This document shows positions 8,230-12,082 of a stretch of 35,994 nucleotides of DNA, one piece after another. The DNA is from Escherichia phage PhiR44_2. The position numbers were made by a program, and so were the translations under genes. The stretch lies in sequence record PV340564, one strand, 5' to 3'. The notes under the pieces are model-generated. The model was given only the letters and a program-made list of their open reading frames with translations. It did not search any database and was not told the origin of the DNA. Every line of letters starts with the position of its first letter. Position 1 is the stretch's first letter.

Positions 8230-9189
8230 ATGAAAATTTGTATCGATGACGGCTCCACCAACATCAAGCTGGCATGGACTGAGAACGGCGAACGCCGCAA
8301 CGCCATCAGCCCGAACAGCTTCAAGTCGGAATGGTCTGCGCCGTTCGGTGGCACGCAGCCCGCGAACTACATGCTTGATGGCGTGCGCTATGGTTTTGAT
8401 CCGGTCAGCGATCGCTTTGTCCAGACGACTGACACGCAATACCAGTACAGCGATGTGAATGTCATTGCCATTCATCACGCGCTGGTCAAATCAGGCATCA
8501 CGCCACAGGAGGTGGATGTGGTTGTCACCCTGCCACTGAGCGAGTATTTCGACACAAACGCACAGCCGGACATAGCCAACATCAACCGCAAAAAAGCGAA
8601 CGTTATGCGCCCGGTGGAGTACCAGAACGGCGAAGCATTCACTATCCGTAACGTACGGGTTATGCCTGAATCCATTCCGGCTGGCTTTAAGGCACTGGCT
8701 GACATGAGTCCGTTTGAATCCCTGCTGATTGTGGATTTAGGCGGAACCACGCTGGATGTGGCAAAGGTTCAGGGACAACTGGCAGGTATCAGCCAGGTGT
8801 TTTGCGATCCACACGTAGGCGTTTCCCTGATGGCCGATGCCGTACTGTCGGTGATGGCCACTAACGGTATGCGTACCAGTCACCACATCGCCAATACCAT
8901 TATCGAACATCGCCATGATGAAGCCTGGCTGCGCCAGCACATCCACAATGACGCGCATTACGCCAGCCTGATGGCGGTTATTCGTGAAAAGGAAGAAACA
9001 CTGAAACAACGCGTGATCCGCGCGCTGGCGGGTTTTTCGGGTTACGGGCGGGTGATGGTTGTCGGTGGCGGGGCAGAGATTGTGGCACCCGCTATCCGCG
9101 AAGCCTGCGGAGTTAATGCGACTTTCATCGCGGACGGGGTGCCACAGTTTGCTCTGGTTAATGGGCTGTACGCAATGGGCAAGGAGTAA
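8230..9189 (+). CDS. parM: Actin-like segregation ATPase, ParM/StbA family
   Basis: N-terminus MKICIDDGSTNIKLAW and motifs YSDVNVIAIHHAL, VMPESIPAGF, LIVDLGGTTLD, VMVVGGGAE match plasmid R1/R100 ParM/StbA as recalled. Confidence 0.85.
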   Translation: MKICIDDGSTNIKLAWTENGERRNAISPNSFKSEWSAPFGGTQPANYMLDGVRYGFDPVSDRFVQTTDTQYQYSDVNVIAIHHALVKSGITPQEVDVVVTLPLSEYFDTNAQPDIANINRKKANVMRPVEYQNGEAFTIRNVRVMPESIPAGFKALADMSPFESLLIVDLGGTTLDVAKVQGQLAGISQVFCDPHVGVSLMADAVLSVMATNGMRTSHHIANTIIEHRHDEAWLRQHIHNDAHYASLMAVIREKEETLKQRVIRALAGFSGYGRVMVVGGGAEIVAPAIREACGVNATFIADGVPQFALVNGLYAMGKE

Positions 9190-9193
9190 ACCA

Positions 9194-9505
9194 ATGACGA
9201 CACCAACCAGACGGATAAGTTTCTATCTGAAGCCCGCCGCCGTCAAGAACGAAGGCGAAGCATGCGCCTGGCTGGACAGCCTTACACCAGAAGCCCGCAA
9301 AAGTGGTCAACGCGTGGCTTTTCTGGCCGGGCTGGCACTACTGAAAATGAATCCGGCAGAGGCTTACCGACTGGCTGCATGGGCTGATGATGAGGCGTTA
9401 TCAATGACACAAACCAGGACAGAACGCCCCGCGTCACAGCCAGTATCAGCCGCACAGATAACCAGTCAGATGGCCGGAAATATCCGGGCGTTATTTCCCG
9501 AATAA
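9194..9505 (+). CDS. parR: ParR/StbB-like centromere-binding adaptor
   Basis: About 103 aa directly downstream of parM with RBS AAGGAG; RRISFYLKP...FLAGLAL...IRALFPE resembles R1 ParR (RRTIAFKLNP...LTAGLAL...LRSLFPKE, recalled). Confidence 0.6.
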   Translation: MTTPTRRISFYLKPAAVKNEGEACAWLDSLTPEARKSGQRVAFLAGLALLKMNPAEAYRLAAWADDEALSMTQTRTERPASQPVSAAQITSQMAGNIRALFPE

Positions 9506-9517
9506 CACAACATCAGG

Positions 9518-9537
9518 GCGCATCCGCCCTGATGACT
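9518..9537 (+). terminator. Hairpin (8-bp stem TCAGGGCG/CGCCCTGA) after parR; possible attenuator
   Basis: Inverted repeat seen directly; no clean T-run. Confidence 0.3.
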
Positions 9538-9568
9538 TTAACCCGGGAGCATAAACAAGGGGGACACA

Positions 9569-9901
9569 ATGCAACACATTGACAGAGAAAAAGCGCAGCG
9601 ACTGATTGAGCGGATGGAAGCGCTGGCGAAAGAAGAAAATGTCAACATCCAAAAAATAGCTGAATGTGGCCAGATAGTTCTTCGTCGTGAAAAAGACCTC
9701 AAACAACTGATGTCTGGCGAAACCAGCAAAACATGGACTTCAGGCGAGAAGACGGTTTATTGCAGCTTCTGCAATAAATCCCAGTACGAAGTCACAAAGG
9801 TGATTGCCGGACCGTCTGTTTACATCTGCAATGAGTGCGTGGATTTGTGCAATGAAATTATCAGGAAAGAAGTGACAGACAAAAAGGAAAAAAACGCATG
9901 A
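9569..9901 (+). CDS. Small protein carrying a ClpX-type C4 zinc-binding domain
   Basis: C-terminal [39 protein letters not shown] is near-identical to the E. coli ClpX N-terminal domain ([39 protein letters not shown], recalled); no AAA+ module. Confidence 0.8.
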
Positions 9902-10212
9902 ACAGAAAACAGAAACAAGAGTTGAAATACTTCTTACGTAAAGAAATTGCCAGGCTTGAAGATGCAGAGTCACAATCATCAGAAATTCCGTTCGGAATGG
10001 ATATCAACGACGCCCGTATGCTCCAGGCATACCGCATAGCTCAGGCTGCACTACAGGCAAAACCGTCAGATGGACTGGTTAGAGCAGTACATTTCTATGA
10101 ACAGGTAAAGCGTGAGAATCCGCCAGTCGAAACCGGAGCATGGAAAGACGCTGTTGACTGGGTGCTCAAAGAGGCTTGCCAGTCTGTAAACATTGGCATC
10201 AAAGGAGAGTGA
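9898..10212 (+). CDS. Hypothetical protein (104 aa)
   Basis: ATGA-coupled ORF; ends ...NIGIKGE. Confidence 0.6.
10191..10212 (+). repeat. 22-bp direct repeat, left copy (CATTGGCATCAAAGGAGAGTGA)
   Basis: 21/22 identical to 10686-10707; each copy encodes the C-terminus and stop of one gene plus the RBS of the next. Confidence 0.6.
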
Positions 10213-10214
10213 GA

Positions 10215-10706
10215 ATGCAAATTTCACCGGTTACTCTTCGTGTTGCGAAGGCGTTTATATCCAGACATCACCGACACAATAAACCCCCGGTGGGGCATAA
10301 ATTCAGCATTGGTCTGAGAAATGATGCCGGAGAATTGATAGGTGTGGCGACAGCCGGTAGACCTGTTGCACGACATTTGGACGATGGATTAACGCTTGAA
10401 GTAAATCGCACATGTACCACAGGAGAACGCAACGCTAACAGCGCGCTTTATGGTGCTGTCTGGCGGGCAGCAAAGGCTATGGGTTATCAACGTTGTATTA
10501 CGTACACCCAGGCAGATGAATCAGGAGCATCTCTCCGCGCAGCTGGTTTTGTTCGTGTGAAAGAGCTTCCTCCAAGAAAAAGCTGGGCGGAATCAAGCGT
10601 CGCCCTGCGGAGTAAACGCGATCCGGTCGGAAACGGTGGTGTTCCTCGTGTGCTCTGGGAAATCAGGAGAATGAGTACCACTGGCATTCGCATCAAAGGA
10701 GAGTGA
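10215..10706 (+). CDS. Hypothetical protein (163 aa), flanked by the 22-bp direct repeat
   Basis: ORF 10176..10706, ATG at 10215 after AAAGGAGAG; ends ...IRIKGE. Confidence 0.6.
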   Translation: MQISPVTLRVAKAFISRHHRHNKPPVGHKFSIGLRNDAGELIGVATAGRPVARHLDDGLTLEVNRTCTTGERNANSALYGAVWRAAKAMGYQRCITYTQADESGASLRAAGFVRVKELPPRKSWAESSVALRSKRDPVGNGGVPRVLWEIRRMSTTGIRIKGE

Positions 10707-10707
10707 T
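10686..10707 (+). repeat. 22-bp direct repeat, right copy (CATTCGCATCAAAGGAGAGTGA)
   Basis: See left copy. Confidence 0.6.
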
Positions 10708-10971
10708 ATGGCAACTTTGACAAAAAAAGAACAAGCATGGTTGAGCGAATTACAGGACGTTCTTGATCGCTGTCCATCACCGAAAAAAATTGGTTTTTAC
10801 ACCATTGGCGATAAAAGCATTTACCTGTATGACCTGCGCCGCATGGATGAAATCATGGAGGCTCTTGATAATCGTTCGTCAATGGATTGGTGTGTTGCTG
10901 TCCATGATATGAATGCAGGGTTTGATGAAAAGATTTTGTTCCCCTCATCAGTTGAAAGCACAGCAGGATAA
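10708..10971 (+). CDS. Hypothetical protein (87 aa)
   Basis: ORF with AAAGGAGAG RBS (inside the repeat). Confidence 0.6.
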   Translation: MATLTKKEQAWLSELQDVLDRCPSPKKIGFYTIGDKSIYLYDLRRMDEIMEALDNRSSMDWCVAVHDMNAGFDEKILFPSSVESTAG

Positions 10972-11006
10972 GGACCCAGCAAATATACACAACCTATAAA
11001 ACACTA

Positions 11007-11030
11007 AAGCGCCTCAGGGGCGCTTTTTGT
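11007..11030 (+). terminator. Rho-independent terminator of the accessory operon
   Basis: AGCGCC-tcagg-GGCGCT stem followed by TTTTT. Confidence 0.6.
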
Positions 11031-11060
11031 TTGCACAAAAGTGCACAAATTTGCACAATT
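11031..11060. repeat. Three tandem 10-bp repeats (TTGCACAAAA GTGCACAAAT TTGCACAATT); a fourth copy at 11123-11132
   Basis: Perfect 10-bp phasing seen directly; lies in the non-coding region where the cos/packaging site is expected. Confidence 0.5.
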
Positions 11061-11429
11061 TTTTTGAACGACTTTTTACCCTTCCGGCCCGCATGGCGGC
11101 TGGATCCGTCAAGGATCCGTGCGTGCACAAAAAAACGCGCTTTTTCTGCGCGCAGGTGACGGGGGAACAGCCCGCGTTTCAGGGGGTAAATAGCATTCCC
11201 TGAACGATGTCGCAGAGACACAACAGAATGGCCATATTTCTCACGCTGAGCATGAAAAAGGCGTGAGGGCTTTTGATTTGATGGGGTGAAAGGTAAGGCC
11301 GTCAAAATCGCACTGAGGCAGCGAGAACATGCAGTCAACGCGGTGGAATTGCGTAAGAGTCTGACCGTCGATGGTGGCGATAAACTGGAAGGCGTCGTGA
11401 AATTATCTGATTGATACAGGAGCTGGAGA

Positions 11430-11458
11430 GCCGGGGCATAAATTTTTTATGCCCCGGC
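11430..11458. repeat. Perfect 13-bp palindrome GCCGGGGCATAAA-ttt-TTTATGCCCCGGC
   Basis: Seen directly; about 100 bp upstream of the 11558 gene. Confidence 0.5.
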
Positions 11459-11557
11459 GAAGCAGCAGACAAGCGAAGCGCGTCAGCGATACGGCACCTT
11501 GCCGACCATACTTCATAAGTGCAAAATACGAGCAAAGAAATCAATGGAGGCTGTCTT

Positions 11558-12082
11558 ATGGTCATTAATTACAAGCAGTTAAGAGAAAAACGGGAGCAGG
11601 TAAAGGAGAGCTTTCGCCGCAATGAAGATCTGACCCCGCTTGTACGCCTTGCCCAGGGCATTGTTGATGCTTATGAAATCTCGCTGGAGCTGCCATCACA
11701 GACCTGGACAGATAGCGACGGTAATCGCCAGCATTACGTTTCATGCGGACTGGAAGCAGCCGAAGGATTTCGCAGAATGCCTTTATCCCAGATCCCTGCC
11801 GCTACCCCCAAAGCACGGGGCAGCAATGATGAGCGAAAACTGACTTTTAGTATTGAAACGGTGGTTGACGACACACCTGGCGAAGTCGCGTTCGTGCACA
11901 CGCCTGTTTCGATCGCAATGTATAACGATGAAATACAGGTTCGCGTTAATAATAATATCGTGCCACTTAAAGAAGGTAATTCACCCTACACCACCGTTTG
12001 TGAAGCCATTCAATATTACGTTCTCTCTGAAATTGATAATCTCAAGCCTGACGGCACCCAGAAAATGGTTCAACTCTGGTAA
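11558..12082 (+). CDS. Orphan hypothetical protein (174 aa) between the repeat-rich non-coding region and portal gene
   Basis: ORF 11519..12082, ATG at 11558 with GGAGG upstream; no family recognised. Confidence 0.6.
   Translation: MVINYKQLREKREQVKESFRRNEDLTPLVRLAQGIVDAYEISLELPSQTWTDSDGNRQHYVSCGLEAAEGFRRMPLSQIPAATPKARGSNDERKLTFSIETVVDDTPGEVAFVHTPVSIAMYNDEIQVRVNNNIVPLKEGNSPYTTVCEAIQYYVLSEIDNLKPDGTQKMVQLW

Follow-up and report, generated by a model that had tools for sequence, protein, structure and literature searches.

Escherichia phage PhiR44_2 (record PV340564) is represented here by a stretch of 35,994 nucleotides (nt), called the window in what follows, and the region under study is the interval 8230-12082, which lies between the gene of the replication endonuclease gpA (5286-8153; Pfam Phage_GPA, 4e-131) and the gene of the portal protein gpQ (12097-13143; Phage_portal and PHROG 68). 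Judged by its breakpoints with relatives, the interval is composed of four parts: a parM/parR pair that belongs to the backbone, a first variable slot with four small genes (slot 1), a conserved non-coding block, and a second variable slot with a single gene (slot 2). We favour the explanation that the gpA-gpQ region is a composite of a fixed parMR pair, an early-expressed slot 1, a packaging block and a slot 2 resembling a moron, and give it a probability of about 0.55. The four-part division follows from blastn of the window against eight relatives with 95-99% identical flanks, and base composition agrees with it.

The genes gpA, parM and parR are conserved at 95-99%, and similarity to phages Chuche and 520873 ends exactly at the parR stop codon (9505). 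The sequence is variable from 9506 to about 11006/11031, conserved from 11007/11032 to 11486, variable over 11487-12121 and conserved again from 12122. The G+C content is 57.1% in gpA, 55.1% in parMR and 53.4% in the Q/P genes, against 46.6% in slot 1 and 47.5% in slot 2. Slot 1 of phage P88 holds a gene for a ClpX-type zinc-binding domain (ZBD) and a gene similar to that of the 104-amino-acid (aa) protein, that of Chuche has genes on the reverse strand, that of 520873 a single small gene, and that of 569R5 and of ST131 prophages a DUF4760 pair on the reverse strand. Slot 2 is occupied in 569R5, U15A and ST131. In P88, Chuche, 520873 and AVS0756 it is empty, and 11486 is directly followed by 12122. 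Its occupancy is independent of slot 1 among the relatives examined; ST131, for instance, has slot 2 together with quite different slot-1 cargo. An initial annotation made from the window had described one accessory island in the position of the P2 orf91/tin/old locus. The position is right, since the interval lies in the cos-proximal segment between gpA and gpQ that is a described hotspot of P2-like phages (PMC9122126; PMC13586616), and the content is variable as claimed, differing among relatives that are otherwise about 97% identical. The idea of a single island has to be given up, the cargo being held in two independent slots split by a conserved non-coding block of about 480 bp, with parMR part of the backbone.

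Table 1. Features of the gpA-gpQ interval and of the sequence just upstream of it (positions of the window).
Feature	Position	Strand	Description
Two 42-nt direct repeats	8087-8128, 8160-8201	+	each with a 20-nt palindrome ACGGGATT-N4-AATCCCGT; on either side of the gpA stop codon, a short way upstream of parM
parM	8230-9189	+	319 aa
parR	9194-9505	+	103 aa
Slot 1	9506-~11006	+	four genes: ZBD, 104-aa, XF1762, 87-aa
GC-rich hairpin	9511-9534		10-bp stem; start of slot 1; travels with the ClpX-ZBD cassette; absent where similarity ends at 9505
ClpX zinc-finger (ZBD) gene	9569-9901	+	110 aa
104-aa protein gene	9898-10212	+	
Junction repeat GCATCAAAGGAGAGTGA, copy 1	10196-10212	+	ribosome-binding site and stop codon; 104-aa/XF1762 boundary
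XF1762 gene	10215-10706	+	163 aa; GNAT fold; isoelectric point (pI) 10.9
Junction repeat GCATCAAAGGAGAGTGA, copy 2	10690-10706	+	XF1762/87-aa boundary
87-aa protein gene	10708-10971	+	acidic, pI 4.7
Intrinsic terminator	11006-11026	+	9-bp stem, then T-run; marks the right edge of slot 1; relatives align again from 11007-11032
Conserved non-coding block	11007-11486		about 480 bp; 92-100% identical in all P88-like relatives; invariant core ~11080-11200
Slot 2 cassette	11487-12121	+	174-aa gene, bidirectional terminator (12088-12108), last few portal codons
174-aa protein gene	11558-12082	+	orphan, pI 5.0

By its sequence relationships the element is a P88-type prophage within the P2 family (Peduoviridae, genus Xuanwuvirus). 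The best phage matches of 8230-12082, all piecewise, are Escherichia phage P88, vB_EcoM-569R5, Chuche, 520873 and other Xuanwuvirus records. Three E. coli chromosomes align over the full length at 99.4-99.5% identity, and the whole interval is present in 42 genomes at 98-99.5% identity. A 99.5%-identical prophage in RefSeq has the same seven coding sequences, in the order replication endonuclease, ParM, partition/stability family protein, ClpX C4-type zinc finger protein, hypothetical protein, XF1762 family protein, two hypothetical proteins and portal. Together with PHROG family matches for each product (E-values from 3.9e-30 to 4.1e-91), this shows that the seven open reading frames (ORFs) are real genes; all have an ATG start and a purine-rich ribosome-binding site. 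Their number, common direction and coordinates between gpA and the portal gene are as first described. The statement that no Tin or Old homologue is present also holds: tblastn of the whole window with P2 Orf91, Tin and Old gave best E-values of 0.75, 4.0 and 2.0, each outside the interval, in a search where the P2 gpA control reached 4e-71. The scan with defence profiles that the initial annotation had proposed, carried out with PADLOC-DB, gave zero matches at E <= 0.1 among the seven interval proteins.

Table S5 of Rousset et al. 2022 (PMC9122126) lists ParM, ParR, zf-C4_ClpX and four hypothetical proteins on contig NZ_MCJY01000012 (WP_000686484, WP_001163784, WP_001167295, WP_000236495, WP_000224227, WP_001080491 and WP_000211251). 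Six of these seven accessions are those of the 99.5%-identical RefSeq prophage, and the ParM is a close variant. Among the tables of that study available to us, the Pfam labels and accessions of these genes occur in the locus tables only and not in the table of systems evaluated for defence. The locus is already catalogued there. Taken as a whole, the earlier reading of the interval is partly supported, its underlying observation being confirmed. It had also considered that the genes might prove to be a conserved syntenic core of many P2-like phages with established roles in replication or morphogenesis; parM and parR do form a conserved syntenic core within this sub-lineage, with a role that is only putative, and the other five genes do not.

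ParM matches Pfam StbA_N (3.6e-82), the ParM C-terminal domain (1.3e-68) and PHROG 691 (partition protein). Its score of 20 bits against the NCBIfam ParM equivalog, far under the cut-off of 417, indicates a divergent branch. ParR matches Pfam Plasmid_stab_B (2.5e-24), as expected of a StbB-type adaptor. The two genes directly follow gpA at 95-100% identity in every P88-like relative examined, and 1307 of the 5426 complete E. coli genomes have them. This conservation, with a G+C content matching that of the backbone, leads us to regard parMR as lineage backbone and not as swappable cargo in this lineage. Roughly one in four P2-like phages has a putative partitioning system at the hotspot (PMC9122126); a literature search for ParM in Peduoviridae found nothing specific. 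The distribution does not indicate residence on an extrachromosomal replicon, 1453 of 1455 places being chromosomal and the RefSeq prophage having an integrase and adjoining dmsA. The element may pass through a transient plasmid state, and ParM/ParR would probably place or segregate the phage genome during its extrachromosomal phase, in establishment or in lytic replication.

The direct repeats upstream of parM are likely candidates for the parC centromere or ParR operator. Their palindrome occurs in two copies 73 bp apart against 0.12 expected, and nowhere else in the window, and the repeats are conserved in all relatives, with either of two ParR alleles. These alleles, read in the window at 9194-9505 and at loci L025 and L003, have residues 1-18 and a C-terminal ...LFPE tail in common and are strongly divergent in the middle, while parM and the palindromes are unchanged. 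ParR residues 1-18 would form the DNA-reading strand of a ribbon-helix-helix fold, which is consistent with a fixed centromere. Two points count against this assignment: the covariation of ParR and palindromes, tried as a test of the centromere, is uninformative, because the N-terminal 18 residues and the palindromes are the same in both alleles; and there are only two palindromes, versus ten iterons in R1 parC. Matches that break off near query position 1019 indicate that roughly half of the occurrences in E. coli have the other ParR allele. A decayed P88-like prophage of E. coli O157:H7 TR01 (L026 4811-7017) still has parMR; its post-parR region is broken by an IS3-family pseudogene and joined to tail genes. 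The gpA homologue preceding parMR is about 940-955 aa long versus 761 aa in P2 (31.6% identity across 674 aa); the additional residues are at the C-terminus, where other PHROGs match (phrog_14885 and phrog_14675, function unassigned).

The four genes of slot 1 are separated by a 4-nt overlap (ATGA, between the ZBD and 104-aa genes), a 2-nt gap and a 1-nt gap, a spacing by which they are predicted to be translationally coupled. In front of parM, of the ZBD gene and of the 174-aa gene, a crude search for sigma-70 consensus sites found none, which is a weak negative. We infer that slot 1 is the tail of a rightward transcription unit with gpA and parMR, closed by the terminator at 11006-11026. Its genes are probably expressed with the early genes and would act on the host and not shield the lysogen. 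A role in the lytic cycle, in counter-defence or host takeover, is favoured over defence of the lysogen by orientation, coupling and provenance together: the genes are coupled, run with gpA/parMR and have no predicted promoter of their own, tin and old of P2 are divergent, and the 87-aa gene is found in Salmonella phages of about 59 kb whose lifestyle is unspecified. A consideration on the opposite side is that ParMR cassettes normally have their own ParR-regulated promoter, so that slot 1 could be read through in lysogens.

The 17-nt sequence GCATCAAAGGAGAGTGA is present in two exact copies that flank the XF1762 gene, against 0.00 expected, and the same motif is found at cassette boundaries in Kapi1 and PhiR41_1, with a related form in U15A. 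In U15A-type prophages other DNA replaces XF1762 exactly between the repeats, the U15A breakpoints being at 10212 and 10695. A more general junction, AAGGAGAGTGA-n-ATG, which combines ribosome-binding site, stop and start, recurs in the accessory arrays of P88-like phages, of the P22-like Kapi1 and of the D6-like PhiR41_1. The copies of the motif outside the window lie at L004 4430-4444, L017 3964-3978 and L006 ~3469-3483 and ~3912-3926, and it gives the neighbouring proteins ...IKGE ends. The motif looks like a recombination linker for cassette shuffling, and cassette exchange by recombination at short junctions is the simplest account that these sequences offer of slot-1 turnover. The genes would be swapped one cassette at a time at such junctions and would derive from accessory-gene arrays common to lambdoid, P22-like and D6-like phages. 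The XF1762 gene has 92.5% nucleotide identity to a gene of Kapi1 located after an Ead/Ea22-like gene, between recT and xis.

Slot 2 is a one-gene cassette that, with its own ribosome-binding site and terminator, is the only part of the interval arranged like a classic moron, and this organisation makes it the best candidate for an exclusion function expressed in the lysogen. The portal protein ends in ...DEKTAP where the cassette is present and in ...DTQPTS where it is not, about six final codons being replaced. The cassette also provides the terminator of the portal operon. It is present in 397 of the 5426 E. coli genomes (about 7% of complete genomes), always on the chromosome. The 174-aa protein has an alpha+beta fold and no assignable family, and a structure search returned no informative structural neighbour, which tells against the function proposed for it. 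Its family comprises only 19 clusters and is found in the gpA-gpQ interval at three of three P2-type loci examined; by these matches the gene is restricted to P2-family gpA-gpQ intervals. The protein would act by binding and not by catalysis. Its most distant homologue, at 46% identity, is in Trabulsiella guamensis (L012 6001-8053), where it occupies this hotspot directly after gpA, with a HicB-domain gene and a Phd/Fic pair next in line.

The non-coding gap between the two groups of genes measures 586 bp (10972-11557), in line with the 590 bp or so first given. It had been called repeat-rich, a mild overstatement for a gap that does contain repeats but is only moderately rich in them: it holds four copies of TGCACAA, the terminator hairpin and a 13-bp perfect inverted repeat (11430-11458). 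Three of the TGCACAA copies, at 11032, 11042 and 11052, are in exact 10-bp phase, one helical turn apart, and a fourth is at 11124; these are four of the six that the window contains. In relatives without a slot-2 cassette, the conserved block abuts the portal gene. By synteny with P2, the block probably holds the packaging region with the cohesive-end site (cos). Leads to the cleavage site itself come from two sources. The linear record NC_049391 has its two termini at what corresponds to 11077/11078, shortly past the phased TGCACAA copies. Two apparently particle-derived assemblies have deletions in GGTGACGGGGGAACAGCCCGCG at 11163-11175, of 7 nt in Chuche and 5 nt in P88_4B11, which are absent in the other aligned relatives, mostly prophages; these could be assembly artefacts at the cohesive ends and, as such, a pointer to cosN. 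The disagreement of the two leads (11077/11078 versus ~11163-11175) counts against the cos assignment, as does a blastn search of 10900-12100 with the P2 cos junction, which gave nothing significant. A match of 13/19 to the 19-nt P2 cohesive end at 11155 was discarded, ten sites in the window scoring >= 13 in an ungapped scan. An Rfam scan of 7900-12300 at E <= 1 returned zero RNA families. A 42-aa ORF at 11286-11414 (+ strand, GTG start), annotated in P88 and NC_049391, is open in seven relatives with mostly non-synonymous substitutions, and is not counted here as a gene.

The ZBD protein of slot 1 consists of an N-terminal helical part of about 60 aa and a C-terminal ClpX C4 zinc-binding domain (Pfam zf-C4_ClpX, 6.8e-18), whose 50 residues share 61% identity with residues 2-63 of E. 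coli ClpX and keep the four Cys. The AAA+ module is absent from this 110-aa protein, which reaches 51 bits against NCBIfam clpX (cut-off 370.75) at model positions 6-54 only. Full-length homologues exist in P88, D6 and PhiR41_1 and adjoin Ea22-type genes; in the phage-plasmids D6 and PhiR41_1 the homologue comes directly after the Ea22 gene. On its own, the zinc-binding domain of ClpX forms dimers and recognises the tail of SspB as well as substrates that include lambda O and MuA, so a free copy could compete with host ClpX for these ligands. Competition for ZBD-dependent substrates and adaptors would be the most plausible activity of the phage protein. It weighs against this decoy idea that it is derived from general ClpX biochemistry. 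A literature search for phage-encoded free ClpX zinc domains found nothing specific. The 104-aa protein matches PHROG 26213 (3.9e-30) and PHROG 660 (3.3e-28). Its tblastn matches in 77 phage records cover mostly residues 58-103 only and are full-length only in P88; the C-terminal ~45 residues recur in Stx/lambdoid phages, at the C-termini of genes labelled Ea22-like by their depositors. The name 'Ea22-like' was not retained for the 104-aa protein, as tblastn shows no similarity to the Ea22-type genes of Kapi1, D6 and PhiR41_1. The 87-aa protein matches PHROG 1714 (1e-50, function unassigned) and is widespread in temperate phages, with tblastn matches in 78 phage records including ST64T orf-87, Klebsiella phages and the Salmonella phages mentioned above; like the 104-aa protein, it has matches in lambdoid and Stx phages.

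The 163-aa product of slot 1, one of three small proteins that the initial annotation had counted as unknown, can be taken off that list. It scores 204.7 bits against NCBIfam XF1762_fam (NF045478, cut-off 50), and the identical protein is named 'XF1762 family protein' in RefSeq; a literature search for 'XF1762' found no paper naming the family. By sequence and predicted structure we regard it as a Mom-related transferase, a short relative of Mom that is not Mom by the defining features of that family. It matches PHROG 1384 ('Mom-like DNA modification protein') with an E-value of 4.4e-42, the only PHROG matched by Mu Mom (7.8e-84). Its predicted structure is a GNAT fold with a predicted local distance difference test score (pLDDT) of 89.5, and Mom is among its top two structural neighbours. 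Searches of the PDB by sequence, with the protein and with its profile, gave zero meaningful matches and did not recover Mom, and the link comes only from the fold search and profile-profile comparison. In an hhalign comparison of the XF1762 profile with a 32-member Mom alignment (E 2.8e-4, probability only 41%, 120 columns), H19, E62, R65, N73, S76, E102 and G104 fall on Mom H58, E108, R111, N121, S124, E150 and G156, and the equivalent of Mom N110 is also kept. R65 is invariant in the family and S76 nearly so; of their Mom counterparts, both essential, R111 is specific to Mom and not general to GNATs (PMC13219725, PMC7261163).

The XF1762 family is huge, with 3313 clusters at 50% identity in phages of Proteobacteria, Actinobacteria and Cyanobacteria. 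Distant members have a recurring neighbourhood of DNA metabolism that may guide the search for a function: in Burkholderia phage phi1026b (L022 2995-5562) the homologue and a DNA methyltransferase gene overlap, stop with start, and a ParB-like gene comes next; among Mycobacterium prophages (prophi68-1, L024 1352-3839) the homologue lies between a methyltransferase and an HNH endonuclease; and replication genes are near homologues. The target of the protein is probably a nucleic acid or a host factor, which it would modify as a GNAT acyl- or aminoacyl-transferase, though not in the exact manner of Mom.

A stricter equivalence, in which XF1762 would be a true functional Mom that protects phage DNA from restriction by glycyl-tRNA-dependent adenine hypermodification, appears unlikely. 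It could draw on the PHROG, the structural neighbourhood and the eight retained Mom positions described above, on the basic pI, on the homologues adjoining DNA methyltransferases and on the Pfam family Mom (PF25680), which 42 of 59 XF1762-family representatives match at E <= 0.01. For the protein itself Mom is likewise the only Pfam match, but its 22.4 bits are under the gathering threshold of 27.1, and the low hhalign probability points in the same direction. The essential R151 of Mom falls in a 4-residue alignment gap, Y159 on L107 and Y59 on R20, an invariant Arg of XF1762. The helix-turn-helix (HTH)-like insertion of Mom (~175-209, ~35 aa) is required, and its deletion abolishes momylation (PMC13219725); XF1762 has in its place, between beta6 (113-118) and beta7 (145-151), 26 residues (119-144) with one 6-residue helix and a pLDDT of 60-66. 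No Com-like translational regulator is adjacent. The missing equivalents of R151 and Y159 and the missing insertion also count against our own reading of the protein as a Mom relative, which retains the shared fold and the Arg/Ser pair and leaves aside the Mom reaction.

Two other explanations concern the cargo as a whole. The small proteins at 9898-10971 had been put forward as prime candidates for uncharacterised defence or anti-defence functions, and could, singly or jointly, be a new anti-phage defence carried as lysogenic-conversion cargo, the equivalent of tin/old. For P2-like phages this site is the principal hotspot of defence genes; in roughly half of the P2-like prophages it contains no system that can be recognised, which means that there are systems still to be discovered; the content differs among close relatives, and the G+C content is under that of the backbone. 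We nevertheless hold this to be quite improbable. PADLOC matches none of the proteins, and the three genes do not behave as the unit that had been supposed, each occurring separately in other phages: they do not co-occur outside the lineage, the neighbours of XF1762 in Kapi1 are different, the 87-aa gene is alone in many phages and also present in the ~59-kb Salmonella phages of unspecified lifestyle, and the 104-aa gene is full-length only in P88. The same genes populate the early-left 'ea' arrays of lambdoid phages, and here they are coupled to and co-directional with the gpA/parMR unit, with no predicted promoter of their own, unlike the divergent tin and old. The genes of both slots might instead be selfish or neutral passengers, kept only by recurrent recombination at the junctions. 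Such cassettes would need no more than the purely mechanical route of gain and loss that the junction repeats provide; a remnant annotated as a pseudogene replaces XF1762 in U15A-type prophages, and three of the five genes have no assignable function. This view also finds very little credit with us. All five ORFs are intact with good ribosome-binding sites, 42 genomes retain the whole interval at 98-99.5% identity and 397 the 174-aa cassette, and the invariant catalytic-site residues across the 3313 XF1762 clusters indicate purifying selection. Pseudogenes are reportedly rare in P2 hotspots (PMC13586616), and useless DNA is penalised by capsid size limits.

A composite region with early-acting cargo in slot 1 and a moron-like slot 2 remains our preferred reading. 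A bolder version of it is doubtful: the XF1762 'mini-Mom' family would be a new class of counter-defence enzyme that keeps the Arg/Ser pair, dispenses with the DNA-clamping insertion and targets another nucleic-acid context, tRNA or a host immune protein, working with the ZBD decoy in an early takeover module, and the 174-aa gene would independently be a new single-gene exclusion factor.

Far from the interval, past the Ogr/Delta gene (33739-33999), the G+C content drops to 35-42% in window positions 34500-35994. Two genes there encode a zinc-ribbon protein (34593-34925) and a protein with a VasI-like (type VI secretion) domain (34930-35823), neither of which PADLOC matches. The segment probably represents host or island sequence next to the prophage, or else a cargo site on the att side.

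By itself the locus is an ordinary instance of a known hotspot that has been surveyed twice at scale, and it adds little to those surveys. Its added value is in the two insertion slots that flank a conserved block in P88-like phages, and in parMR having to be treated as backbone. Slot 1 draws on the lambdoid/D6-like accessory pool through short junctions, a concrete route by which genes can pass between phage families with little else in common. Three modest leads come from the genes themselves: a huge Mom-related GNAT family without the essential insertion of Mom, a phage-borne free ClpX-ZBD, and a 174-aa orphan of the P2 hotspot.

The region compares with known systems part by part. It has the position of the P2 hotspot, between the replication endonuclease and portal genes, and the same turnover among near-identical phages; it differs in having no known defence system and in placing cargo on both sides of a conserved non-coding block. 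P2 old and tin are divergent and have their own start sites, whereas slot 1 is co-directional with gpA/parMR, as in the early operon of P2. The parMR pair resembles the type II ParMRC of plasmid R1 in the succession of an actin-like ParM and a small StbB/ParR adaptor, with repeated DNA elements directly upstream of parM, but belongs to an integrating prophage and has two palindromic sites where R1 has ten iterons. The nearest functional analogy to a prophage parMR may be AlpAC, an actin-like system of prophage CGP3 in Corynebacterium, which serves the replication and transport of phage DNA and not plasmid inheritance.

Slot 1 is akin to the early-left 'ea' arrays of lambdoid and P22-like phages (Ea22/Ead-type), which are made of small, tightly packed, co-directional genes with conserved short junctions, and single slot-1 genes are 92-98% identical in nucleotide sequence to genes of Kapi1, TL-2011a, Stx phages and others. 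Unlike those arrays, it is grafted to the end of a P2-family gpA/parMR unit and does not lie between recombination genes and xis. Its ZBD protein has the C4 zinc ribbon of the N-terminal domain of host ClpX, fused to a helical segment of about 60 residues in a phage accessory array and free of the AAA+ unfoldase. The XF1762 protein has in common with Mu Mom, a methylcarbamoylase (PDB 8bv8; PF25680) that turns adenine of double-stranded DNA into N6-carbamoylmethyl-adenine with the help of Gly-tRNA, the GNAT fold, the PHROG, the equivalents of R111 and S124, a basic surface and a phage location. It is shorter, with 163 aa versus 231-241 aa, and has neither the HTH-like insertion, nor equivalents of R151 and Y159, nor a com-type regulator; and while mom stands at the late end of the Mu genome, the XF1762 gene is part of an early accessory array.

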